A stretch of DNA of 64,000 bases from Methanothrix sp. (GCA_963682135.1 OY821645.1:2304001-2368000); one strand, 5' to 3'; positions 1 through 32,685 are shown, counted from the stretch's first letter. Notes: generated by a model not told the origin, from the sequence alone. A program made the numbers and translations.

Positions 1-691
1 TCACGCTCCTGCTCTCCAGCCGCATCAATTCATCCGACTGTGCAAGGACCGCCGCCACTTCACAGCCGTAGGTCTTCTCCGCTTCTCCGGCAATTCTCTT
101 TGCATCATAGCCTGCCAGCAGCTTATTTATGACCAGCAATGGTCTCGGCACCTCCAGCCGCCTGCAGACCTCAAGGGTGACAGAAGTTCCCTGATAATCC
201 TGATAATCAGGCCGCATGATGATCAGCAGGACATCGGAGATGGCGAGCGATAGCAGGCTCTCCTCTCCAATTCCCGGATGGGTATCAATCAGCAGATAAT
301 CGAGATTAAGCGAGCGCATGATCCGGGAAAAGCCCTCGCTCAATGACGATACCTCGTACCCTTCCTTGAGAATCCTGGTGATGTCATTAACGCCGATGCT
401 GGACGGGACCAGGTAGACCTTCCCCCCGGCTTCTCTAATGCCCGAAAGCCTCTCCGAGACATCCCTTGCCGCCTCCTCAATGGTGCATCTGCCCCAAAGG
501 TAATCATTTAAAGATGGAGTCGTATCCTCTGCCTTCAGACCGAAGAATACATGCACTCCTGGAGACTGAACATCGGTATCTACGATGCATACCCGATGGC
601 CTCTACATGCAAGGCAGGCAGCCAGGTTGGCGATTATACTGGATTTTCCTGTTCCCCCCCGAAAGGAGTGAGCAACGATGATCTTACCCAT
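1..691 (-). CDS. MinD/ParA-family ATPase (3' end runs off the window)
   Basis: Not in ORF track. Manual translation from ATG at 691: MGKIIVAHSFRGGTGKSSIIANLAACLACRGHRVCIVDTDVQSPG..., with deviant Walker A, DxD and LIDTHPG. GAGGTG RBS lies in the end of the upstream radical SAM gene. Confidence 0.85.
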   Translation of the reverse strand, partial: MGKIIVAHSFRGGTGKSSIIANLAACLACRGHRVCIVDTDVQSPGVHVFFGLKAEDTTPSLNDYLWGRCTIEEAARDVSERLSGIREAGGKVYLVPSSIGVNDITRILKEGYEVSSLSEGFSRIMRSLNLDYLLIDTHPGIGEESLLSLAISDVLLIIMRPDYQDYQGTSVTLEVCRRLEVPRPLLVINKLLAGYDAKRIAGEAEKTYGCEVAAVLAQSDELMRLESRSV

Positions 692-695
692 GGGA

Positions 696-2231
696 TCACA
701 CCTCTATTTCAATTCGACCTAAATACCTCAGATATGCCTCATCATCTGCATAATTCATGAACATGATTCGCCCGAGGGGCGCGTTTCTGGGACTGGCAGA
801 ATTCCGAATAGGAGCTTTGCCTCCACCTGGCTTCCCACTGCCGCTCAATAGAACATGCATCATATTGCATTTATTTAGCTCGAATACAATGTCCTTGAAA
901 TCCTTTTCCTTCAAATGGGGTGACATCTTGAGGCGGTAATCACTGTGGAACATGCGCATGATATCAAATATCTCCAGACCGTCTTCAATCCCGAATGCTT
1001 TCCGCTCATCCCAGAGACGGGAGCCGGGAAACTGCTGAAACCAGTTCATAATTGCCCATCCATCGTACTCTGAGACCAGCTTATCGGCAAACGCCACCGT
1101 CTGGAAGCATTCATTCCGGCTCTCCCAGGGAAATCCCAGGATAAAGCTGTAGTAGACGGGAATATTCCTTTCCCGAGCCTTGCCGGCGCACTTTTCCACC
1201 ATCTCCAGATCAATTCCCTTCCGAATCCTTCGCAGGCCGGACGGGTAGCCGCACTCAATTCCGGCGAGAATAAAATCCAGCGGGAGACCTGTACACAGGT
1301 CCAGAATCTTAGATCTGACCAGATCGTCGACTCTCGCCTCAAAGTCAATGCAGAAATCACCCAGATCCATAGCCTTGAGTGCTTGCAGGATCTCCTCACA
1401 CCTTTTTCGATTGCCGGCAAAATTGCCGTCAACAATGGAGAGATTCTTTCTCCCCCGACGCAACTTTCCCTCATGCTCAATTGCATGCTCAATTCGCTGA
1501 AGTGAGGCCCGGGGACGGCAGCTTCTCCACCCACCCCTCGACGCCAGTGTGCAAAAGGTGCAATTGAAACGGCAGCCGCGTGAGGTCTCAACACAGATCT
1601 TGCTGTAAATGCCCGATGGCAGAAGGTCCAGAGCGGGAAGCGGATTGTCATCCAGCTCTTCCAAAGAGAGCTGCTTACGATCTCGATTTACAGCAATCTC
1701 CCCATTCTTCCGATAGGATATTCCATCCACGCTATCAAGCGCTCTTCCGTTCTCAAGAGAATTAAGAAGCTCCGGGAAGGTCCTCTCTCCCTCGCCTCGC
1801 ACAATGTAGTCTACATCAGTTGCCTCTAAGATGTGACGGTCGGCCAGAGTGGGATGAATTCCTCCCGCAATTATGGGAAGGTCTGGATCCAATTCTTTGA
1901 CCCTTTTTGCCATTAGCCTGGCCAGGAACCAGTTGAAGCTGGTGGCTGAAATGCAGACAGCATCCTTATTCTTGAGGCTTCTCTCCAGCGCTGGAAATTG
2001 CAGGCTCGCCTGATTGTCAATGAGAGTGATTTTAATCGTTCTCATTCCATTGATTTCAAAATAATTGTCCGCCGGATCCAGCAGACAGACCTGATGGTCA
2101 GAGCGAGCTATTGATGCCAGCAAATAGATGGAATTGCACGGTGCCAACCCCGGCTGGAAAGAGTCGATTTCACGCTCGAAATTGGCTGAGCCGACATCAA
2201 ACATTGGGGCTGATGTGAGCAGAAGATTCAT
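696..2231 (-). CDS. Cobalamin-dependent (class B) radical SAM enzyme, paralog 1
   Basis: N-terminal B12-binding Rossmann domain (GGIHPT, VRGEGE); ETSRGCRFNCTFC CX3CX2C motif; GIECG, FILGFPWE. Confidence 0.9.
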   Translation of the reverse strand: MNLLLTSAPMFDVGSANFEREIDSFQPGLAPCNSIYLLASIARSDHQVCLLDPADNYFEINGMRTIKITLIDNQASLQFPALERSLKNKDAVCISATSFNWFLARLMAKRVKELDPDLPIIAGGIHPTLADRHILEATDVDYIVRGEGERTFPELLNSLENGRALDSVDGISYRKNGEIAVNRDRKQLSLEELDDNPLPALDLLPSGIYSKICVETSRGCRFNCTFCTLASRGGWRSCRPRASLQRIEHAIEHEGKLRRGRKNLSIVDGNFAGNRKRCEEILQALKAMDLGDFCIDFEARVDDLVRSKILDLCTGLPLDFILAGIECGYPSGLRRIRKGIDLEMVEKCAGKARERNIPVYYSFILGFPWESRNECFQTVAFADKLVSEYDGWAIMNWFQQFPGSRLWDERKAFGIEDGLEIFDIMRMFHSDYRLKMSPHLKEKDFKDIVFELNKCNMMHVLLSGSGKPGGGKAPIRNSASPRNAPLGRIMFMNYADDEAYLRYLGRIEIEV

Positions 2232-2430
2232 CTCTGGCCTCCGTGTTTTTTTTGCCTATCTATTAGAAATATTATTCTCAGATATTCCCATTTGTCTTAA
2301 TATGCTCCAAGTATTTAATTATTGCTGAAATTGATTTTTTATTGTATGTTAGATTAAACCGTATAATCAAGTTTGAAAAGCGAAATAAATAAATAGCTGA
2401 ATTGCCTACAGGAAACAAGGAGGTTTTTTC
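2232..2430. promoter_or_regulatory. AT-rich divergent promoter region between radical SAM 1 and the precursor peptide
   Basis: Very AT-rich spacer between divergent genes; strong SD AAGGAGGT shortly before TTG at 2431. Confidence 0.5.
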
Positions 2431-2652
2431 TTGGCATCTAAGGAAGAAATGGAGCGATTGGTTGGAAAGGTTATATCAGACGGATCATTCAGACAGAGCT
2501 TTTTAAAAGAGCCAAAGGCGAGCGCCTCAAAGGTCGGCATAGTTCTTACGCCAGAACAGGAAGCATCCTTTAAAAAGGCTGATTTCGCCAAGATGGTTGG
2601 CGAATTAGAGAAAGTGGCCTCAAAGAGCGGCTGCATCTCTCCATGTATGTAG
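2431..2652 (+). CDS. Putative RiPP precursor, NHLP-clan leader (Franean1_4349/Os1348-like) with short Cys-containing core
   Basis: Leader pattern ERLVGKVISDGSFRQSFLKEP...GIVLTPEQ matches the nitrile-hydratase-like leader motif; ends ELEKVASKSGCISPCM; perfect SD; flanked by five radical SAM genes. Confidence 0.8.
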   Translation: MASKEEMERLVGKVISDGSFRQSFLKEPKASASKVGIVLTPEQEASFKKADFAKMVGELEKVASKSGCISPCM

Positions 2653-2694
2653 CTGTGCATAGAGACAACTAATCTTTTTTGGAAAATACCGACG

Positions 2695-4236
2695 ATGAAA
2701 GTCCTCTTGACCGCAACGCCCAGATTTGACTTTCAGATGGATTCATATAAAAATGATGTAGATTTTTATAAAAGAAACCTGCGCCCCTCTCTAGCACTAT
2801 ACCAGCTTGCTTCCCTCTTGCAGCCCAATCACCAGGTTGAGATTCTCGATCCCGCATGCAGCGACTTCTCGCTGCCGGGTGGCGGCCATGTGCACATGCT
2901 GGAGAGAGAGAGACTGAAAGCCCTGCATTTTCCGAGTCTGGAAAGAAAAATCTGCGGCATGAATGCTATCTGCATCTCTTCGACCAGCTTTGACTGGTTC
3001 CTGGCAAAATCCATGATAAGTCGCATAAAGGAATATGATAATGACTTGCCGGTAATTGTTGGCGGAATTCATTCCACAATTGCAGACCGCTACATCCTTG
3101 AGTCGTCCAATGTTGATTTTGCGGCAAGAGGAGAAGGGGAAAAGACCCTTCCAGAGCTTCTCACTGCTATGGAAGAAGGCGGCGATCTCCGGAAAATTGA
3201 GGGACTGTCGCTTAGAAGCGGCGGCGCTGTAAGGAGAAACAGGGATCGTCCACTGCTCTCCGCAAAGGAGCTGGAGGAGATGCCCCTTCCGGCAATGGAG
3301 CTCATGCCGTCTGGCATTTACGGAAAGCTCACTGCCGAGACATCCAGGGGCTGCCACTACAAGTGCGCCTTTTGTAGCATCTCATTTAGCAGAACCTGGA
3401 GAGGAATCAGCCCAGAAGCGGCGATAAAGAGAATTGAGCATGCGGCCTCATTTTCCGGAAAGCTCTACGGTCGGGAAAGATCGATCACATTGGTGGATGA
3501 CAACTTCACCGCAGATAGGAAGAGAGCTGAGAAGATCCTGGAAAGCCTTAAGGATGCAGATCTTGGAGAGATGAGCCTGGCCTTCGAAGGACGGGCAAAT
3601 GAGATATTGGATTCAAATATACTGCCCCTGTGCAGAGATCTTCCCCTGGATTATCTCTTCTTTGGGGTAGAATGCGGATACGAACGCGGCTTGAGGATGA
3701 TTCAAAAAGGAATTCATACCGATACCGTGATCAAATGCGCTGAGCAGGCAAAGAGATGCGGCATATTGCTGCACTACGGATTTATCGCCGGGCTGCCCTG
3801 GGAGACAAAAGAGGATTGCCTGAGCACCGTAGCCTTCGCCAATCGGCTGGTGTCTGAATTTGACGGTTTTGCATTCATCAGCTGGTTTCATATCTTTCCC
3901 GGCTCCAGGCTCTGGGATGAAAGAAAGAGGTACGGAATCGATGACGGTCTCGAGCTTTATGACGACATCTATCATCGAACCAAAGAATACCGTCCCAGAA
4001 TGTCTCCTAACCTCTCCATGGATGATCTCCTGGTGATTGAGCATGAGATCGATAAATGCAATCTGATGCGGGTTTTAAGCCATAATGATAAGGACAGCTC
4101 TGCAGACGAAATCGCCCATTCGGCATATTCGAAGGAGGGTGGCTACTCTCTGTCCAGGACCAAAGGATATCTTCAAAGATTTGAGCTGCCGGATAAGGAG
4201 ACATCGTTGATATACATCGATCCGATCGGATCTTGA
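2695..4236 (+). CDS. Cobalamin-dependent radical SAM enzyme, paralog 2
   Basis: GGIHST, RGEGE, ETSRGCHYKCAFC, GFIAGLPWET. Confidence 0.9.
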   Translation: MKVLLTATPRFDFQMDSYKNDVDFYKRNLRPSLALYQLASLLQPNHQVEILDPACSDFSLPGGGHVHMLERERLKALHFPSLERKICGMNAICISSTSFDWFLAKSMISRIKEYDNDLPVIVGGIHSTIADRYILESSNVDFAARGEGEKTLPELLTAMEEGGDLRKIEGLSLRSGGAVRRNRDRPLLSAKELEEMPLPAMELMPSGIYGKLTAETSRGCHYKCAFCSISFSRTWRGISPEAAIKRIEHAASFSGKLYGRERSITLVDDNFTADRKRAEKILESLKDADLGEMSLAFEGRANEILDSNILPLCRDLPLDYLFFGVECGYERGLRMIQKGIHTDTVIKCAEQAKRCGILLHYGFIAGLPWETKEDCLSTVAFANRLVSEFDGFAFISWFHIFPGSRLWDERKRYGIDDGLELYDDIYHRTKEYRPRMSPNLSMDDLLVIEHEIDKCNLMRVLSHNDKDSSADEIAHSAYSKEGGYSLSRTKGYLQRFELPDKETSLIYIDPIGS

Positions 4237-4281
4237 GAATCGCCTTAAAGGACGAATATCACAAAGGGATCACGCCGAAAT

Positions 4282-5826
4282 ATGAAAATATTGCTTACTG
4301 TCTCGCCCCGTTTTGAGCTGCACGATGATATTAAGTATATCGATATAAAGTCGTGCAAGAGAGGCTCCCGTCCATCTCTTGCTCTTTATCAGCTGGCATC
4401 AACTATTCGGGAGGAGCATGATGTTCAGGTGCTCGATCCGGCAATCAGCGACTTTCAGCCCAGGCAGCTGGAGCTGCATGGCCGGGGTGATGTTGATCTC
4501 CTGGATGCTCTGCACTTTCCTGCACTGGAGAAGAGCATCAATGGCGTCGATGTAATCGGCATCTCTGCCACGAGCTTTGAATGGTTCCTGGCAAAAATCA
4601 TGATTGAACGGATCAAGGAGAAGGATCCTAACCTGCCTGTCATCGCCGGTGGCATCCATCCCTCAATTGCCGACCGATACATCCTGCAGTCATCGAAAGC
4701 AGATTACGTTGTGCGAGGCGAGGGGGAAAAGGCCCTTCCCGAACTCTTGGCCGCCCTTCAAGATGGCTCAGATCTGGCTGGCATCGATGGCCTCTCCTAC
4801 CGCCAGGGCGAAGCTGTGCTGAGAAATAAAGATCGCAGGCCAATGACTGCTCAAGAGATGGAGGAGCTTGCACTTCCTGCCTTTGACCTCATGCCGTCCG
4901 GTCTTTATGGCAAACTGACACTGGAAACGTCAAGAGGCTGCCTCTTTGACTGCAGCTTCTGCAGCCTTCCTTTTCGCAGATCGTGGCGGGCTTTAAGCCC
5001 GGAATCGGTCCTGAAGAGGGTCGAGCATGCGGCGAACTTCACGAGCAAGCTTTACGGCGAATGCAAGGCGATCCACTTTGTTGATGCTACCTTCGTTGCC
5101 GATTCGAAAAGGGCTCTGGCAATCTTTGCCGGACTTCAGGAGATGGACCTGGAGGATACGAAAATCGCCTTTGAAGGGCGCATCAATGAGATGGCAAATC
5201 CGGAGATACTGAAACACTGCAGGAAGATTGCCATTGATTTCATAGTAATCGGCATTGAGAGCGGCTACAATGATGGATTGCGCAGAATTGGAAAAGGGAT
5301 CACCACCAGATCGGCAGAAAGATTTGGCTCAATGTCAAGGGACCTCAGCTCATACTTCCGCTATGGTTTCATCGTTGGCTTTCCCTGGGAGACAAAAGAG
5401 GACTGCCGGAAGACCATAGCCTTTGCCAATCGCATGGTTTCCGAATACGGCGGCCTTGCAGTAGTCGGCTGGTACCAGCTTTACCCCGGATCAAGTATCT
5501 GGAACGATCGAATGCAGTTCGGGATCCATGAAGGATGGGAGCTTTTCGACAGCCTGCAACTGCGGTCTCAGGCCTTCCGCTCCAGGCTAACCCCCAGGCT
5601 CTCTGAAGAAGATATCTGGGAGATTGACCATCAGATTGATACGCATAACATAATGAGAGTGCTGGATAGCGATGATAGCAGCAAAGACCGCGACGTGGAC
5701 GATCTCACCTCAGCTATTTACACTCCTACGGACGGCTATTTCCTCACGAAGACCGGCGGGTTCATAGACAAAACCCCACCCTATTTTGACCTCCGGGCAA
5801 AGCTCTTTAGCCTCGACTGGACATAG
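4282..5826 (+). CDS. Cobalamin-dependent radical SAM enzyme, paralog 3
   Basis: GGIHPS, VRGEGE, ETSRGCLFDCSFC, GIESG, GFIVGFPWET. Confidence 0.9.
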   Translation: MKILLTVSPRFELHDDIKYIDIKSCKRGSRPSLALYQLASTIREEHDVQVLDPAISDFQPRQLELHGRGDVDLLDALHFPALEKSINGVDVIGISATSFEWFLAKIMIERIKEKDPNLPVIAGGIHPSIADRYILQSSKADYVVRGEGEKALPELLAALQDGSDLAGIDGLSYRQGEAVLRNKDRRPMTAQEMEELALPAFDLMPSGLYGKLTLETSRGCLFDCSFCSLPFRRSWRALSPESVLKRVEHAANFTSKLYGECKAIHFVDATFVADSKRALAIFAGLQEMDLEDTKIAFEGRINEMANPEILKHCRKIAIDFIVIGIESGYNDGLRRIGKGITTRSAERFGSMSRDLSSYFRYGFIVGFPWETKEDCRKTIAFANRMVSEYGGLAVVGWYQLYPGSSIWNDRMQFGIHEGWELFDSLQLRSQAFRSRLTPRLSEEDIWEIDHQIDTHNIMRVLDSDDSSKDRDVDDLTSAIYTPTDGYFLTKTGGFIDKTPPYFDLRAKLFSLDWT

Positions 5827-5840
5827 ACCTCCAGCAGCCG

Positions 5841-7283
5841 TCAGGCGGCCATCAGTCTCTCCATGTCCTCTGAAATCGGCAGCAAACTGAGGAAGAAGTC
5901 CGGTCTTTGGCGCGATAGTTCCGCATAGATCCATATGGATAGCTCTGCAATATGCCTGTTGAGATCGCAGCTATGACTATCAGGCTCCCATACACTGCCA
6001 TTGATGGCTGCTGACTCGGCAATGCATCCGCCTGCGCATAGGTATCGAGCCCAGCAGGACCGGCAGGCACGAATATTATCGACATCGACGAGTCTCTCCT
6101 GCAAACGAGCCATTCTATCAGGATCAATTCCCTGCCGGATATCGCCCAGGGCATAATCCTCCTGCCCCACAAAACCGGGACAGGGATAGACTTTTCCTTC
6201 TTTGGAGACGCTCAAAAGGCTTGTTCCGGCTGCGCAATATCTCCTAGCTCGATTGCCGGATGCAATTGTGGAGATGAAACGCGAAAAAGCCGAATTGATA
6301 GTCGCTCCATTTATTACTGCATCCTCCAAAATGTAGCAAGCAAACTGCGAGTATGCGCTCTTCATGAGGCTCAGAGAGGCATCGTCAAGACGAAATTCCT
6401 CAACAAAACCCCGGGCATGATGAATATAGATGTGATCTGCCCCGAACTCTTGCAGGAACCTGGCAGTCTCAGCAAAATCGCTTGTCCTGCTATCCAGAGT
6501 GCTCTCAAACTGGACATTTTCATTGTATCCATCCAGAAGCTGAGGCAGCCAGCGGCAGATGCGATCAAAAGAGCCTCTTCCATCAGGAAATACCCTCATC
6601 CTATCGTGATTCTCTCGGCGGCCATCCAGACTTACGGTTACTTTGCATCTATTCTCCTTCAAAAATGATATTATATCTTCATCAAATAGAGTGCCGTTTG
6701 TGGTCAAATGATGAATGATTTTCTTTCCGGAGATTTCTTCCTTTTCCCGGGAGCATTCGATGATCGCTTTGATGACACCGAAATTTAGCAGCGGCTCGCC
6801 GCCAAAAAAGGAGATGGTGAGATTTCTGTCCGTTGATTCTCGAATCAAAAAGTCAATGCTGTCACGAGCTACCTTATCAGACATCCTGCCGCCATCTCTT
6901 CCGTATGAGCCGTGCGAAGCCAGGCAATATCTGCAGGAGAGGTTGCACTCCTCAGAAAGGTTCATCATCAGATTGCTCAAAGCCGGATCGGCTCTCTCAA
7001 ACCTAGGAATGGCCTTCTCTCTTCCTGATTTGAGCAAGCCTTTTTCTTGCAGATCGCCTATGGCTTTTGCTGTTTGCGGATCATCTTCGGAACGGGAGTT
7101 AATGGACGGGATGGCATCATCAGCCATTGACAGGATTTGAGATTCACGCGCCGATAGATCATGAACTCTCATCCCTGCCACATCAAGAGCGTAGACGCGA
7201 CCGTCCCGGCTGAAGAGATGTGCCTCAACTCTACTAAGCTGCAAGTTGCCATCCAATTTTCCACCCCAAAGACACGCAGACAC
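5841..7283 (-). CDS. Radical SAM/SPASM peptide maturase with N-terminal RRE/PqqD-like domain (TTG at 7256 is an alternative start)
   Basis: CNLSCRYC, FFGGEPLL, TTNGTL, SLDG; full SPASM C...GKVYPC...CRSCWARYLCAGGC...C; N-terminal beta-strands plus helices ending DLQEKGLL. Confidence 0.9.
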   Translation of the reverse strand: MSACLWGGKLDGNLQLSRVEAHLFSRDGRVYALDVAGMRVHDLSARESQILSMADDAIPSINSRSEDDPQTAKAIGDLQEKGLLKSGREKAIPRFERADPALSNLMMNLSEECNLSCRYCLASHGSYGRDGGRMSDKVARDSIDFLIRESTDRNLTISFFGGEPLLNFGVIKAIIECSREKEEISGKKIIHHLTTNGTLFDEDIISFLKENRCKVTVSLDGRRENHDRMRVFPDGRGSFDRICRWLPQLLDGYNENVQFESTLDSRTSDFAETARFLQEFGADHIYIHHARGFVEEFRLDDASLSLMKSAYSQFACYILEDAVINGATINSAFSRFISTIASGNRARRYCAAGTSLLSVSKEGKVYPCPGFVGQEDYALGDIRQGIDPDRMARLQERLVDVDNIRACRSCWARYLCAGGCIAESAAINGSVWEPDSHSCDLNRHIAELSIWIYAELSRQRPDFFLSLLPISEDMERLMAA

Positions 7284-7416
7284 TCGCTGACTGAATTCTC
7301 ACCATTTATTTAATTTCGCTAAAGTCTATTTATAAATGTCGGAAGCGATCATGAGCTCTGCGGCTCTCTTTTGTTCCCAATTCATATCATAGATCTGAGC
7401 CTGTCTGGATTCAATA

Positions 7417-7424
7417 TTTATATC
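7417..7424 (+). promoter_or_regulatory. Archaeal TATA box for radical SAM 4 (probably leaderless mRNA)
   Basis: TTTATATC starts 29 nt upstream of ATG 7446, with no SD; a second box TTTATAAA at 7329-7336 could serve the divergent SPASM gene. Confidence 0.5.
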
Positions 7425-7445
7425 TCGGATATGTACTGATAGATC

Positions 7446-9050
7446 ATGAGGGTCCTGTTAACTGCTGCACCAAGATTTGAGCTGCAAAAAGGTGCCCAAG
7501 ATATTGATATCCGGGCCGAGCTGACGAGCAGGCATCCTTCTCTGGCGATCTATCAACTGGCATCAATTCTGAGAGAGGGCCATCAATTGCACCTGCTTGA
7601 CCCATCGTTGAGCGATTTCAGATCGAAGGGAGGCGAGCAGATAACCGTCAAGGACCAGAGGAGCCTGGCGGGCTTGATATTTCCTGCCCTGGAAAGAGGT
7701 CTGTCAGGCATAGATATGGTTGCTATCTCGGGCACAAGCTTTGACTGGTTCCTGGTCAGGCTCATGGCCGGTAGGATCAAGGAAAAGGACCCGGAAATGC
7801 CCATCCTTGCCGGCGGAGTTCATCCAACTCATGCCGACAGGCATATCTTGAAGACGACTGCAATCGACTTCATAATCAGAGGTGATGGTGAAGAGAGCTT
7901 TCCCAGGCTTCTTCACGCTCTGGAAATTGACGGCGATCTTGAGAGCATTGACGGTCTGTCCTATCGCAAGAGCCTCAGATCGGCCAAGAAGGATGAGATC
8001 AGAATAAATAAAGACGCAACGCCTCTCTCCGCGGAAGAGATCGAGAAGATGCCCCTTCCTGCCTTCGATCTCATGCCCTCCAATATTTATGGCAAGATAG
8101 GCGTGGAATCATCCCGAGGCTGCAGGTTCGATTGCAGCTTTTGCAGCCTTCTCTACCGGAGACTCTGGAGAGGGCTCGCCCCTGAGGCGGTCTTGAAGAG
8201 AGTCGAGCATGCCGCAAGCTTCGCCGACAAGCTTTATGGAGAAGAGAAAGCGGTACAGTTCATCGACGGCACTTTTACTGCCCATGCCAGGAGATCTGAG
8301 AAGATTCTGGAGGGGCTGAAAGATATTGATCTTGGAGGTCTCAGCATTGCCTTTGAGGGTCGGGTCAATGAGATATCAGGACCGAACTCGAACATTCTCA
8401 AGATCTGCAAGAGATTTCCCATTGACTACATCTTTCTTGGAGTTGAGAGCGGATACGACAGCGGCTTGGCTAGGATCAGCAAGGGTTTCAACACAAGGGC
8501 CGTGGAAAGATGCGCATCTTTATCTAAAGAGCAGGGTGTTCCTCTGCGCTACGGCTTTATCGCCGGTTTTCCCTGGGAGGGCAGGGATGAGTGTTTGAAG
8601 ACCCTCTCTTTTGCCGACCACATTGTCTCTGATTATGGGGGACTGGCATTTATCAACTGGTTTTATCTTCTGCCGGGGTCGCGCATTTGGGACGAGAGAC
8701 AATCATATGATATCTCATGCGGAATGGAATGCTTTGACGACCTCACGATAAGAACTAGAGATTATCGCAGAGAGATCTCAGGAAAGCTGGATGACAAAGA
8801 CATCTCCGAGATTGATATGGCTATCAACAGATGCAATCTGATGCGAATGCTGAACGAAAGAGACGGATCGTCCCGCGAGAGCGTCTCATGCTCAGGCGTC
8901 TCAAGAGCCGGGCGTCTTGTGTTTAACAAGACCGGAGGATTCATCGATAGGACTCTTCCTTATTGCGAAGGTGAAACTGCTTTGCTGCGCATTGATTGTG
9001 GATACGAATATAAAGACAAACCAACAAGGAGAATAGCACAGGTTTCATGA
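7446..9050 (+). CDS. Cobalamin-dependent radical SAM enzyme, paralog 4
   Basis: GGVHPT, RGDGE, ESSRGCRFDCSFC, GVESG, GFIAGFPWE. Confidence 0.9.
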   Translation: MRVLLTAAPRFELQKGAQDIDIRAELTSRHPSLAIYQLASILREGHQLHLLDPSLSDFRSKGGEQITVKDQRSLAGLIFPALERGLSGIDMVAISGTSFDWFLVRLMAGRIKEKDPEMPILAGGVHPTHADRHILKTTAIDFIIRGDGEESFPRLLHALEIDGDLESIDGLSYRKSLRSAKKDEIRINKDATPLSAEEIEKMPLPAFDLMPSNIYGKIGVESSRGCRFDCSFCSLLYRRLWRGLAPEAVLKRVEHAASFADKLYGEEKAVQFIDGTFTAHARRSEKILEGLKDIDLGGLSIAFEGRVNEISGPNSNILKICKRFPIDYIFLGVESGYDSGLARISKGFNTRAVERCASLSKEQGVPLRYGFIAGFPWEGRDECLKTLSFADHIVSDYGGLAFINWFYLLPGSRIWDERQSYDISCGMECFDDLTIRTRDYRREISGKLDDKDISEIDMAINRCNLMRMLNERDGSSRESVSCSGVSRAGRLVFNKTGGFIDRTLPYCEGETALLRIDCGYEYKDKPTRRIAQVS

Positions 9051-10552
9051 TCACTCCTTCCTTTGACAGAAAAAAGCCACCCGGCGCACCCGATTATAAG
9101 ATCCTCCTGGTCACGGGCAGAATGGCCGAAGCCCAGGTCAGATCTTCTGCCGACGACGCGCAGGTGCTGGTGGCCGATGTTGATGTGGCCGCCTTTATCA
9201 CCCCCGAGCTGCTGCTTTCCGCTTCTCCCATGGGATACGATCTTATCCTGATTCCCGGCGCCATTACCGCTGATTTCCAGGAAGCAGAACGTGCTCTTTG
9301 CACAAAAATCCGCCTGGGGCCCAAGAACGCTGCCGACCTCAAGGAAGTGCTGCGCCATCTTGCTAAAGAGAAGATCGAGCTATCCCGCACCATTCCTGCT
9401 TGCCGGCTACTGGAAGGAAATATGCGAGAAGGCGCACTCGATCAGGTGCGGCAACTGGAAGAGAAAGCCTCTTCTCAGCTGCTGATCAGGGGCATCAAGA
9501 TCGGTGGCAGCTCTCGCATGAAGGTCCTGGCAGAGATCGTCGATGCCACGCGCCTGCGCCCTGCGGTCCTGACCGAAAGGGTCCGCTACTACGATGATCA
9601 GGGCGCAGATATGATCGACCTGGGGCTGCCTCTCGATGCCCATGCCCATCAGGTGAAAGCCGCGCTGCAAACCGCCCGCCAGGCCACAAACCTTCCCATA
9701 AGCCTTGATACCATCAAGAGCGACCTGATCCTGGCTGGCTTAGAGGCCGGAGCCGACCTGATTTTAAGCTTAAACGCCGGCAATCTGCCCCAGGTGGGCA
9801 AGGCGGTAGCCGGAGCAGGCACGCCGGCGGTGATCATTCCCGGTCCCGGCTGCATCAGTTTGGAAGAGAACCTGTTAGCGGCTTTGCAGATGGGAATTTT
9901 AACTATAGCTGACCCGATTCTCGAACCGCCTCTGCAAGGACTGGCTCCCTCGCTGCAAAGGTACAGGCTATTCCAGGAGGATCATCCCGATATCCCTCTA
10001 TTCTTCGGGGTGGGTAATGTTACGGAGCTATTGGATGCCGACACGGTAGGCGTCAATGCCCTCCTGGCCGCCCTGGCGGCAGAGAGCGGCGCATCTATCC
10101 TTTTCACGCCCGAGTTCAGCGCCAAAGCAGTAGGAAGCGTGCAGGAACTGGCCCAGGCTTCAAGAATGATGCTGCTGGCACGCCAGCGCCAGGCGCCTCC
10201 CAAAGACCTGGGCCTTGACCTTCTCATCTTGAAGGAGAAGAGACACTTGCCGGAAGAAGCCATGCCCGAAACGGTAATTGAAGCTAAAAGAGAACACAAT
10301 TACCAGCCGGACCGCAGTGGATGCTTCAGGATATCAATCTCATCGCAATCGATACTGGCTCAAAATGCCGGCACAACCGTCGCGGGACGAAATGCTCGCG
10401 ACATCCTCAATACTCTCATCGATATGGGTTTGGTCAGCCGCCTGGATCATGCCGGATACCTCGGTCGCGAACTGGAGAAGGCTGAGATCGCTCTTCGCCT
10501 GAAAAGAAGCTATGTTCAGGACGAACCGCTCTGGTCCTCTGAGAAACGTTAA
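9047..10552 (+). CDS. Archaeal dihydropteroate synthase-like protein (pterin-binding domain plus C-terminal DUF4346-like domain)
   Basis: KILLVTG, RLGPKNAADL, GADMIDLG, GVGNVTELLDAD, HAGYLGRELEKAEIAL..YVQD. Confidence 0.85.
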   Translation: MITPSFDRKKPPGAPDYKILLVTGRMAEAQVRSSADDAQVLVADVDVAAFITPELLLSASPMGYDLILIPGAITADFQEAERALCTKIRLGPKNAADLKEVLRHLAKEKIELSRTIPACRLLEGNMREGALDQVRQLEEKASSQLLIRGIKIGGSSRMKVLAEIVDATRLRPAVLTERVRYYDDQGADMIDLGLPLDAHAHQVKAALQTARQATNLPISLDTIKSDLILAGLEAGADLILSLNAGNLPQVGKAVAGAGTPAVIIPGPGCISLEENLLAALQMGILTIADPILEPPLQGLAPSLQRYRLFQEDHPDIPLFFGVGNVTELLDADTVGVNALLAALAAESGASILFTPEFSAKAVGSVQELAQASRMMLLARQRQAPPKDLGLDLLILKEKRHLPEEAMPETVIEAKREHNYQPDRSGCFRISISSQSILAQNAGTTVAGRNARDILNTLIDMGLVSRLDHAGYLGRELEKAEIALRLKRSYVQDEPLWSSEKR

Positions 10553-14897: not shown

Positions 14898-16145
14898 GTG
14901 ACCACTCCCGCCAATGAATTGGCGGGCATCTAGGCTGATGCCAAAGACTGTAGCCCCAGTCTTGCGATGTTAAGAGCAGCATTGAGATCTCTATCTATCG
15001 ATAATCCACAATAGGGACAATTATGGACTCTGATAGATAGATCCTTTTTGACTATTTGACCACAGCTTGAGCATATCTGAGATGTATTTGCAGGATTTAC
15101 CAATACTACTTTCCTACCAGCATCTTCCGCTTTGTATGAAGTATATTGTACCAGTTTATTCCAAGCAGCATCCAATATGCTCTTCGCTAGGTTGTGATTA
15201 TGAACCATTTTGGTTATATTCAGGTCTTCAAATGCAATTATTCCATATTTGTTGATCCATTCTCGGCTCAGTTGTTGGGCAAAGTTCTCTCTTTGATTGG
15301 TTACCCTTTCGTGCAGATGACTTACAATTTTGCTTGCTTTCCTTCTCTTAGCAGATCCTTTTAGCAGCTTGTCACGTTTGCTTTGAGCCTTCTTGAGTTT
15401 TTCTTCATCAGCTAGAAGGAATTTAGGATTCTCGATGAACTCACCATTGGAAAGCACAGCGAAGTTCTTGATACCCATGTCCACGCCGACCATCTCATCA
15501 GATGGTTGCAGAATGTGATTTTGTGCCTCTTCAACCAGGAAAGACACATACCATTTTTTGGTTGAAGATCTTCGGATGGTCAGTCTCTTAACGCATCCAT
15601 CAACGGGGCGATGCAACTTGAATTTGATATCACCAATCTTGGATAACCAAATCACGTTGCCGTCTATGTAGAAGCCACTCTGTGGATAACTGATGCTATC
15701 GTATCTGTTCTTTCCCTTGAAGCGAGGATAACCAACTTCTTCTTCGCCAGATTGAACCCGTTTGAAGAAGGCTCTGAATGCGAGGTTAACCCTCAGAACC
15801 ACGTCCTGCAATACCTGAGAATGAACGGATTTCAGTTCCTGCTTCATCTCTTTCCAGATCGGTAGCATCCTCTTGGATTCAAAGTAGCTTACAGACTTCC
15901 CATCTTGTTCAAAGGCATTCTTTCGCATAGCCAACGTTTCGTTATAGACCCATCGGCAAAGCTCTAGTTGCTCATTCAGCTTGGTTACTTGAGCTTTTGT
16001 TGGCTTGAGTCTATATCGAAACACTCTCAATGGTTTACTTCACCTTTCTGCTTTGCTATTTGTTCAATTAGTTTACATATCTTTCGATAGGTACGGGTTG
16101 TATCCCGCCTTTGAAAAGGCGGGGATTAGCCCTGATTCCGTCCTA
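14898..16145 (-). mobile_element. Non-autonomous IS200/IS605-family (IS1341-like) element carrying tnpB only; left boundary approximate
   Basis: Matching subterminal hairpins CCCGCCAA-TGAA-TTGGCGGG (14907-14926) and CCCGCCTT-TGAA-AAGGCGGG (16104-16123); right end ...GGTCAC on the minus strand; no tnpA. Confidence 0.85.
14930..16030 (-). CDS. tnpB: RNA-guided endonuclease TnpB
   Basis: N-terminal FRYRLKPT HTH; RuvC motifs GVDMG, FEDL, DRDLNAA; zinc finger CSSC/CPYC. Confidence 0.95.
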   Translation of the reverse strand: MRVFRYRLKPTKAQVTKLNEQLELCRWVYNETLAMRKNAFEQDGKSVSYFESKRMLPIWKEMKQELKSVHSQVLQDVVLRVNLAFRAFFKRVQSGEEEVGYPRFKGKNRYDSISYPQSGFYIDGNVIWLSKIGDIKFKLHRPVDGCVKRLTIRRSSTKKWYVSFLVEEAQNHILQPSDEMVGVDMGIKNFAVLSNGEFIENPKFLLADEEKLKKAQSKRDKLLKGSAKRRKASKIVSHLHERVTNQRENFAQQLSREWINKYGIIAFEDLNITKMVHNHNLAKSILDAAWNKLVQYTSYKAEDAGRKVVLVNPANTSQICSSCGQIVKKDLSIRVHNCPYCGLSIDRDLNAALNIARLGLQSLASA

Positions 16146-18995: not shown

Positions 18996-19068
18996 TGGAC
19001 AGGTCGGGATTTGAACCCGAGGCCTCTACCATGCCAAGGTAGCGATCTTCCAGCTGATCTACCTGCCC
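18996..19068 (-). tRNA. tRNA-Ala(GGC)
   Basis: GGGCAGG/CCTGTCC-A acceptor stem with G3:U70; anticodon arm CTACC-TTGGCAT-GGTAG; T-loop TTCAAAT. Confidence 0.95.
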
Positions 19069-32588: not shown

Positions 32589-32685
32589 TGCGTCGACCGG
32601 GATTCGAACCCGGGTTGTAGGCTTGCTTCGCAGATATTGAGATCTGCCTGGAAGGCCCAAGTCATAACCACTAGACCATCGACGC
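32589..32685 (-). tRNA. tRNA-Gly(TCC) with a 25-nt intron (32624-32648) at position 37/38
   Basis: GCGTCGA/TCGACGC acceptor; anticodon arm TGGGC-CTTCCA^A-GCCTA; T arm CCGGG-TTCGAAT-CCCGG; canonical bulge-helix-bulge. Confidence 0.95.

Follow-up and report, generated by a model that had tools for sequence, protein, structure and literature searches.

The closest described parallels to the locus considered here, a group of radical SAM genes around a small precursor gene at positions 696-9050 of a 64,000-nt window (the whole stretch of DNA analysed) from Methanothrix sp. (GCA_963682135.1 OY821645.1:2304001-2368000), come from pathways that make ribosomally synthesized peptides with post-translational modifications (RiPPs). 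Polytheonamide, whose precursor PoyA is a proteusin, involves the B12-radical SAM C-methylases PoyB and PoyC, and bottromycin involves three B12-radical SAM methylases for an 8-residue core; the methylases of both pathways reportedly alkylate different sp3 carbons of the core. Known ranthipeptides use an Asp, Asn or Thr acceptor, residues that are lacking in the putative Methanothrix core. To our knowledge, the characterised archaeal RiPPs are essentially the haloarchaeal lanthipeptides. A further point of reference is the CteB/CteA pair of Clostridium thermocellum (5wgg/5why), which, like the families TIGR03974, NF047865 and TIGR04064, has in common with one of the Methanothrix enzymes an N-terminal domain resembling RiPP recognition elements (RREs), a radical SAM core and a SPASM domain with seven Cys.

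Other relevant systems are known from published accounts. ApyD, from the aminopyruvatide pathway, is described as a 645-aa, RRE-containing B12-radical SAM enzyme that methylates the C-beta of a Tyr near the C-terminus of its RiPP precursor (PMC11117315). The first SPASM thioether enzyme from a methanogen, CrpC of Methanococcus voltae (TIGR04463), was published in 2026; it is an RRE-radical SAM-SPASM protein reported to install ranthionine links on the leader-bearing CrpA, a large repeat protein encoded in a three-gene cluster that is described as having no B12 enzymes (PMC13692751). PosA/PflA of Pseudomonas, the prototype of the NF038399 family to which Os1348 (6lk7) belongs, is an experimentally modified RiPP precursor (PMC12636437, PMC7726476). 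Its clusters are described as encoding alpha-ketoglutarate-dependent HExxH hydroxylase/cleavage enzymes and an MNIO-nitroreductase fusion, and as having neither a radical SAM enzyme nor a protease gene (PMC12636437). A survey of archaeal RiPPs predicts products of the radical-SAM type and treats them as unexplored (PMC12144867).

We find that the Methanothrix locus is a genuine RiPP cluster, intact, rare and so far uncharacterised, which probably directs thioether cross-linking together with several C-methylations. By analogy, it may be viewed as a hybrid of the ranthipeptide/sactipeptide and proteusin/bottromycin pathways built on an Os1348-type leader; its distinctive part is the combination of a B12 quartet, a SPASM enzyme and an intramembrane protease on a core of probably six residues. 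It resembles proteusin clusters in joining a large, probably structured NHLP-type leader to several cobalamin radical SAM enzymes, and the bottromycin cluster in its very high ratio of methylases to core residues, whereas it differs from both in adding the SPASM thioether-type enzyme and the intramembrane protease, and in missing the models TIGR03793 and TIGR03975. With PosA/PflA it shares the leader family while the enzymes are entirely different. The initial annotation of this DNA had proposed a system of one precursor and five radical SAM enzymes; all six open reading frames (ORFs) were recovered at its coordinates, and the five radical SAM genes indeed carry intact CX3CX2C motifs (CRFNCTFC, CHYKCAFC, CLFDCSFC, CRFDCSFC and CNLSCRYC).

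The precursor gene and its putative core

The 73-aa product of the small + strand ORF scores 52.3 bits (E 4.5e-14, residues 5-60) against NF038399, the NCBIfam model of Os1348-family precursors of the NHLP clan, whose curated cut-off is 40 bits; in a genomic search with the same model it is recovered at 51.5 bits, again above cut-off. When the precursor and nine relatives are combined in a profile, residues 4-69 align with the Os1348 crystal structure (6lk7) at E 1.7e-5. These matches bear out the earlier assignment to the NHLP clan, with the qualification that the canonical NHLP leader/proteusin model TIGR03793 is missed (22.6 bits vs 50.9). The TTG start codon at 2431 is preceded, at a gap of 6 nt, by a perfect Shine-Dalgarno sequence (AAGGAGGT at 2417-2424), likewise as first noticed, and in two homologs the same start position is occupied by ATG. 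Substitutions among five homologous loci (10 non-independent pairs) fall on the first, second and third codon positions of the + frame in the ratio 107:52:326. Because the NF038399 score above cut-off, the 6lk7 match, the ATG starts and the third-position bias all agree, the 73-codon ORF is a real coding gene of the + strand. An antisense ORF of 84 aa (2406-2660, - strand) was considered as an alternative and rejected, since the hidden Markov model match, the Shine-Dalgarno sequence and the codon-position bias are all on the + frame.

Only nine relatives of the precursor were found in 5.8 billion proteins. Among these homologs the leader (residues 1-67, positions 2431..2631, +) is nearly invariant up to ...ELEKVASKSG, and 4-7 variable residues follow. 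As conservation falls after SKSG, the core is probably about six residues long, with the form C-[I/L]-[S/A]-P-C-M, in loci that have the full enzyme set; we infer this leader/core boundary from conservation alone. In the window the putative core is CISPCM (residues 68-73; 2632..2652, +, stop codon included), which recurs in the Methanosaeta metagenome-assembled genome G042; the other tails are CLSPCM, CLAPCM, FAAPIIK, FAPLL, MTPLGF, IGPF and LMSGL. Two tail Cys are present in this precursor and in three close homologs. The LMSGL tail belongs to a precursor relative (177-425) on the metagenome contig L011, where it is followed by an integrase-core transposase (763-1335) in the place at which B12 genes would be expected; this copy looks like a decayed version of the cluster.

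The radical SAM enzymes and the leader protease

Four of the five radical SAM proteins are paralogs of class B: paralog 1 (511 aa, 696..2231, -), paralog 2 (513 aa, 2695..4236, +), paralog 3 (514 aa, 4282..5826, +) and paralog 4 (534 aa, 7446..9050, +). All four exceed the Pfam cut-offs for both B12-binding PF02310 (35.2-52.2 bits, cut-off 32.1) and Radical_SAM PF04055 (41.9-51.3 bits, cut-off 29.5), and each has its CX3CX2C motif, so that the earlier recognition of a class-B quartet stands; paralog 1, for instance, scores 47.6 and 51.3 bits, respectively, and carries CRFNCTFC at residue 220. Overall the paralogs share 45-51% identity; in a four-way alignment the others are 40-46% identical to paralog 1, and identities to paralog 2 are 47-51%.

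Between loci, orthologs of the B12 paralogs are 69-85% identical: those of paralog 1 are 81% (on L009, a contig of G042) and 69% (on the metagenome contig L012), those of paralog 2 74-85% and those of paralog 3 73-85%, and the paralog 4 ortholog in L012, with 76% identity, adjoins the SPASM gene. We computed a quick maximum-likelihood tree of 31 rows, comprising 14 Methanothrix-type sequences and 17 of 150 listed representatives, the paralog 4 ortholog of genome G008 and the other representatives being set aside. All 14 Methanothrix-type sequences group in a single clade (SH-aLRT 99) and fall into four orthogroups, that of paralog 1 included, each supported at 100, which indicates that the B12 duplications predate the split of these lineages. 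The retention of each copy since then suggests four non-redundant jobs. When 1.84 billion representatives were searched with a profile, a single protein came close at 823 bits, the runner-up scoring 350; from this steep drop we conclude that the enzymes are as uncommon a family as the precursor. Clustered at 90% identity, the window's proteins fall into groups of 1-6 members with generic names only. Among the closest relatives from outside are three paralogs with neighbouring accessions (WP_242352665, WP_242352667 and WP_242352670) that share a 115,872-bp contig of an unclassified Anaeromyxobacter. Several more distant relatives (P0030, P0058, P0090, P0094 and P0104) are fused proteins of 1,500-2,300 aa with 3-4 tandem B12-radical SAM modules.

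The top NCBIfam models for the paralogs are ApyD, HpnJ, MJ_1487, the Mcr glutamine methylase and PhpK, all at 66-120 bits vs cut-offs of 251-750. ApyD (NF050148) is the best or among the top two for all four (85.6-120.2 bits vs 750), and at about 510-535 aa the Methanothrix enzymes are shorter than ApyD; no RRE was detected in the paralogs. The model of RiPP C-methyltransferases, TIGR03975, gives 54.8-83.6 bits vs 281.85, the Mcr glutamine C-methyltransferase TIGR04014 66.5-95.5 bits vs 360, MJ_1487 87-98 bits vs 251, and TIGR04072, NCBIfam's single lipid B12 model, 45-67 bits vs 360. Thus no score at or above cut-off places the enzymes in the Mcr, MJ_1487 or, as far as TIGR04072 represents it, lipid family, and these comparisons did not yield the outcome that would have spoken against the initial annotation. 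The strict linkage to the precursor, moreover, argues against membership in a lipid clade. Nor are the paralogs a housekeeping modifier of Mcr, as the cluster is found in only 3/59 genomes of the genus; no member of TIGR04014 above cut-off was found anywhere in the host genome, G000, which is a single 3.04-Mb contig. Elsewhere in G000 a separate B12 enzyme is a true member of TIGR04013.

An AF2 model of paralog 2 (pLDDT 89.5) has the class-B radical SAM fold, and its best Foldseek match is MgmA (9ccb; E 2.1e-21, TM 0.57/0.69, 19% identity), the Mcr glutamine C-methylase of TIGR04014, which is likewise a radical SAM enzyme of class B and has a polypeptide as its substrate. Further fold neighbours are OxsB, TsrM, AprD4, CysS and TokK; no Pfam domain was found on the C-terminal 96 aa of paralog 2. 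A predicted complex of paralog 2 with the precursor scored 0.45, against 0.00 for the best of three controls, with runs sharing at least 55% of contacts and a partner pLDDT of at least 71. The mark for such scores is reached by 58/80 solved complexes and 2/110 mismatched pairs, and a pass at or below 0.60, as here, is seen in only 7 of those 80 solved complexes and in both passing mismatches; the prediction thus lends weak support to binding of the precursor by paralog 2.

These observations bear on an alternative that we regard as rather unlikely, which keeps the RiPP cluster and assigns to the B12 paralogs either other radical chemistry (C-C or C-S cyclisation, ring contraction or an epimerisation-like reaction) or another substrate, with the SPASM enzyme then alone acting on the peptide. 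Such a division of labour would accord with the absence of any methyltransferase equivalog match above cut-off (TIGR03975, ApyD), with the presence of the non-methylating class-B members OxsB and AprD4 among the structural neighbours of paralog 2, and with the simpler archaeal modules L029, L033 and L034, which have no B12 enzyme at all. It fits less well with the occurrence of the four paralogs only alongside this precursor subfamily, the enzyme family being equally rare, and with the position of two B12 genes (paralogs 2 and 3), which come directly downstream of the precursor at gaps of 42 and 45 nt. Of the curated models ApyD is nearest, and of the solved structures MgmA; both are, furthermore, peptide/protein C-methylases, and the predicted complex with the precursor weighs slightly in the same direction.

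The fifth radical SAM gene (5841..7283, -) encodes 480 aa when read from its GTG, the true start of which may lie a few codons downstream. CNLSCRYC marks the radical SAM core of its product, which also has seven invariant SPASM Cys (C350, C368, C407, C410, C416, C420 and C439); a profile search matched the protein to CteB (5wgg) with E 1.1e-58. The AF2 model, built from a 7-sequence alignment (pLDDT 77.8), superposes on CteB in Foldseek with TM 0.75/0.82 over 460 columns against the 440-residue target. In this model the N-terminus forms a beta3-alpha3 domain (strands 21-26, 29-34 and 39-43; helices 45-52, 55-67 and 69-80) of a kind typical of RREs; Pfam PqqD was not matched on the N-terminal 110 aa, and the RRE assignment draws on the model and on CteB. 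Pfam SPASM itself reaches 19 bits vs a cut-off of 21.5. Taken together, the CteB match, the fold, the seven Cys and the N-terminal domain uphold the proposed architecture of RRE, radical SAM and SPASM in a maturase.

At the level of families, this enzyme stays below the cut-offs of the nif11-like maturase TIGR04064 (282.8 bits vs 518.7), PapB NF047865 (256.6 vs 340) and the SCIFF maturase TIGR03974 (256.5 vs 425). It thus differs from the CteB-type families both in its scores (256-283 bits vs cut-offs of 340-519) and in its archaeal host, and agrees with them in that their substrates and the Methanothrix precursor alike have a Cys-containing tail. Compared with SCIFF, the Methanothrix leader is of the Os1348/NHLP type and the putative core has about six residues with two Cys. 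CrpC is similar in being a methanogen RRE-radical SAM-SPASM enzyme, but the Methanothrix protein belongs to another family, scoring 71 bits on TIGR04463 vs a cut-off of 525.

A candidate leader protease of 466 aa is encoded to the left of paralog 1, outside the window. It has a PqqD-like segment, an HExxH motif at residue 239 and approximately 5-6 hydrophobic segments. Its best model is the daptide intramembrane metalloprotease NF041824 (149.3 bits vs a cut-off of 300), followed at a distance by the YydH/LiaK epipeptide model NF058609 (58.4 bits vs 225); Pfam Peptidase_M50 PF02163 gives 20.8 vs 27.2, whereas orthologs in the loci L030 and L029 reach the Pfam cut-offs for M50 (33.2, cut-off 27.2) and PqqD (28.6, cut-off 23.4).

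The protease is central to judging whether, instead of a released peptide, the 73-aa protein itself is the product, with its tail modified and its leader retained, for example as a metal- or redox-active tail on a carrier. The Os1348 family is reported to fold as a helical dimer (PMC7726476), the Methanothrix leader is far better conserved than the tail, and for the PflA/PosA cluster, described as lacking a protease gene, the authors allow for a full-length mature product (PMC12636437); in Methanococcus voltae, too, a whole protein is given as the substrate of CrpC (PMC13692751). Nevertheless, an intramembrane HExxH protease with a PqqD-like domain is co-inherited with the precursor in the Methanothrix-type loci and in 2/6 other archaeal loci, and its nearest curated families, daptide and YydH/LiaK, are leader proteases of RiPPs. 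We therefore consider retention of the leader unlikely.

Distribution, extent and genomic setting

The precursor profile is present in 3/59 genomes of the genus, and a B12 paralog query found its target in 2/41 relatives, G000 counted. Narrow pattern scans for the precursor gave two loci from 136 matches in genome contigs and at least three loci among the 590 matches listed for metagenome contigs. B12 paralogs and the SPASM gene adjoin the precursor in G000, in G042 (L009), in G008 (contig L010) and in L012, and the protease, ATPase and other left-hand genes are present in G000, L009, L012 and the metagenome contig L013, which preserves the left half of the cluster; the G008 contig ends before them. 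From the membrane protein gene to the SPASM gene the order is the same in L009 and L012, with orthologs 43-94% identical. The co-occurrence of enzymes and precursor, on which the initial annotation had staked its proposal, accordingly holds in every locus long enough to show the enzymes.

Beyond these loci, NF038399 matched 10/401 sampled genomes of the phylum Halobacteriota, five of them above cut-off, and 0/14 control genomes. Six of the Halobacteriota loci were retrieved for gene context. A homologous SPASM enzyme (25-44% identity) lies beside the precursor in 4/6, and two of these four also have a protease homolog (30-50% identity); in the four SPASM loci, each of the five precursors carries one Cys or more in its short tail. 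The six also include one with a distant 614-aa radical SAM protein, one with an orphan extra precursor beside an integrase, and one with a weak NF038399 match and no radical SAM gene. These neighbourhoods point to a conserved core module of precursor, SPASM enzyme and RRE-protease, to which the B12 quartet and the ATPase appear to be an addition, found only in the Methanothrix-type loci among those examined.

The components named in the initial annotation are thus present, while its extent for the cluster, 696-9050, fell short: it missed the left-hand genes for the protease, ATPase, zinc-ribbon protein, regulator and membrane protein, and likewise the shortness of the core, probably no more than about six residues. 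The cluster extends approximately 5 kb beyond the left edge of the window, into the adjoining stretch of G000 (L014), as a minus-strand operon that begins with paralog 1, and the whole block measures about 12 kb, with all eleven genes open in G000. The operon continues with a 255-aa MinD/ParA-like P-loop ATPase, whose gene lies 4 nt downstream of paralog 1 and runs off the edge of the window (1..691, -, the first 230/255 aa), the protease, a 78-aa Cys-rich zinc-ribbon protein, a 146-aa winged-helix (wHTH) protein and a 204-aa membrane protein. No epimerase or YcaO was found among the genes examined.

The ATPase exceeds the Pfam cut-offs for AAA_31, ParA and CbiA, and its orthologs in L009, L012 and L013 are 69-94% identical and occupy the same place. 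An identity as a NifH-like or Mrp-like Fe-S protein was considered and found little support, there being by eye no Cys near its Walker B (DTHPG) or DTD motifs. The zinc-ribbon ORF (L014 10284-10520, -) is Cys-rich in its orthologs in L009, L012 and L013 as well (73-87 aa), overlaps the protease stop codon in four Methanothrix-type loci and gives weak DUF2180 and zf matches.

Within the window, direct reading confirmed two divergent AT-rich intergenic regions, which the initial annotation had taken for promoter regions. The first (2232..2430), between paralog 1 and the precursor, contains AAGGAGGT and lies in a segment with GC 0.40 (2001-2500), and the second (7284..7445), between the SPASM gene and paralog 4, has TATA-like tttataaat and atatttatat. 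The stop codon of paralog 4 overlaps by 4 nt the start of an intact DHPS-like gene (window 9047-10552; TIGR00284, 336 bits). A functional partnership between the two was entertained and is weakened by the presence of paralog 4 but no DHPS-like gene in L012 and G008, and of the reverse in the congener G005. That cluster-free genome has the DHPS-like gene with the same downstream neighbours and no B12 gene upstream. To the left of the cluster lies a decayed 5' DHPS-like fragment (L014 9006-9314, that is, G000:C1:2301006-2301314), with 38% amino acid identity over approximately 110 residues, one in-frame TGA, and 74% nucleotide identity over 144 nt. As the block sits between a gene remnant and a whole copy of the gene, and G005 is without it, an insertion or rearrangement at this site is suggested.

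CRISPR-Cas genes (for Cas1, a regulator of the Csa3 type and a PIN-domain protein) adjoin the cluster at L014 5673-9002; orthologs of the Csa3 gene are on other contigs in G042 and G008, and the same query found none in G005 and G052. A 366-aa ORF (window 14930-16030, -) has by eye the look of a TnpB/OrfB of the IS200/IS605 type. A search for direct and inverted repeats around the cluster yielded no att-like flanks, only short chance-like and paralog-derived repeats. Farther along the window are an ordinary tRNA (18996-19068, -) and a tRNA match of 97 nt vs a 71-position model (32589-32685, -), possibly intron-containing.

Might the block be an accessory island that is silent or decaying and at present serves no function? 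Its patchy occurrence (3/59 genus genomes), its setting between a decayed and an intact DHPS-like gene, with CRISPR-Cas genes beside it and a TnpB-like gene near, and the L011 relative, with its altered tail followed by a transposase, could be read in this way. Yet the eleven genes are open in G000, orthologs are 69-94% identical with intact motifs, the third-position substitution bias of the precursor is strong, and the four paralogs have apparently been kept since before the lineages split, so that we hold such decay to be very improbable.

A proposed pathway and its significance

We propose that the Os1348-type leader would act as a docking handle for the enzymes. The CteB-like SPASM enzyme would form one or more thioether links from Cys68 and/or Cys72 of the core, and the four B12 paralogs would each alkylate, most likely C-methylate, a different unactivated sp3 carbon of the core. 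The intramembrane M50-type protease with its PqqD-like segment would then cut after ...SKSG, so that a very small hydrophobic product would be freed at the membrane or across it. Candidate roles for the zinc-ribbon protein, the membrane protein and the ATPase are the supply of cofactors or electrons, immunity and export.

Several points weigh against a cross-linked and methylated product. The pathway is deduced from genes, and none of the six enzymes scores at or above the cut-off of a curated equivalog, so that their functions are transferred from distant relatives. Enzymes of the B12-radical SAM type also catalyse reactions other than methylation, as one account relates (PMC11117315). The tails of 5/9 relatives (FAAPIIK, FAPLL, MTPLGF, IGPF and LMSGL) are free of Cys, and hence thioether formation cannot be universal for the leader subfamily; L013, one of the loci with such a tail, has no paralog 1 at the syntenic spot, its contig ending before the downstream genes. 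In G042, paralog 4 (83% identity) lies away from the cluster, on another contig upstream of a DHPS-like gene. The complex prediction passed weakly, and the block is without a dedicated transporter gene.

The assignment to thioether cross-linking and several C-methylations nevertheless remains the one we favour. A more specific version of it is possible rather than probable: each of the four B12 enzymes would alter a different carbon of a thioether-bridged six-residue core that is clipped at the membrane, with the ATPase and the zinc-ribbon protein constituting a new support system for cofactor or electrons. If true, the product would be a per-alkylated, cross-linked hexapeptide and the first radical-SAM natural product from a methanogen, with about one dedicated radical enzyme per core residue.

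We found no paper that links Methanothrix or Methanosaeta to RiPPs, with the proviso that the supplementary tables of PMC12144867 and PMC13692751 might list the cluster, none that joins cobalamin radical SAM enzymes, RiPPs, archaea and a precursor peptide, and none that brings together daptides, a metalloprotease and a leader peptide. The locus most likely represents a peptide type so far uncharacterised in methanogens. For enzymology, it offers four related B12-radical SAM enzymes, presumably of different site selectivity, for a tiny substrate, along with an RRE-SPASM enzyme of compact size and an intramembrane protease that bears an RRE; all of them can be addressed with one 73-aa substrate. 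In sediments and digesters, Methanothrix is a major acetoclastic producer of methane. If this organism makes and secretes a heavily modified peptide, the compound would be a candidate for a signal or an antagonist in such methanogenic consortia.

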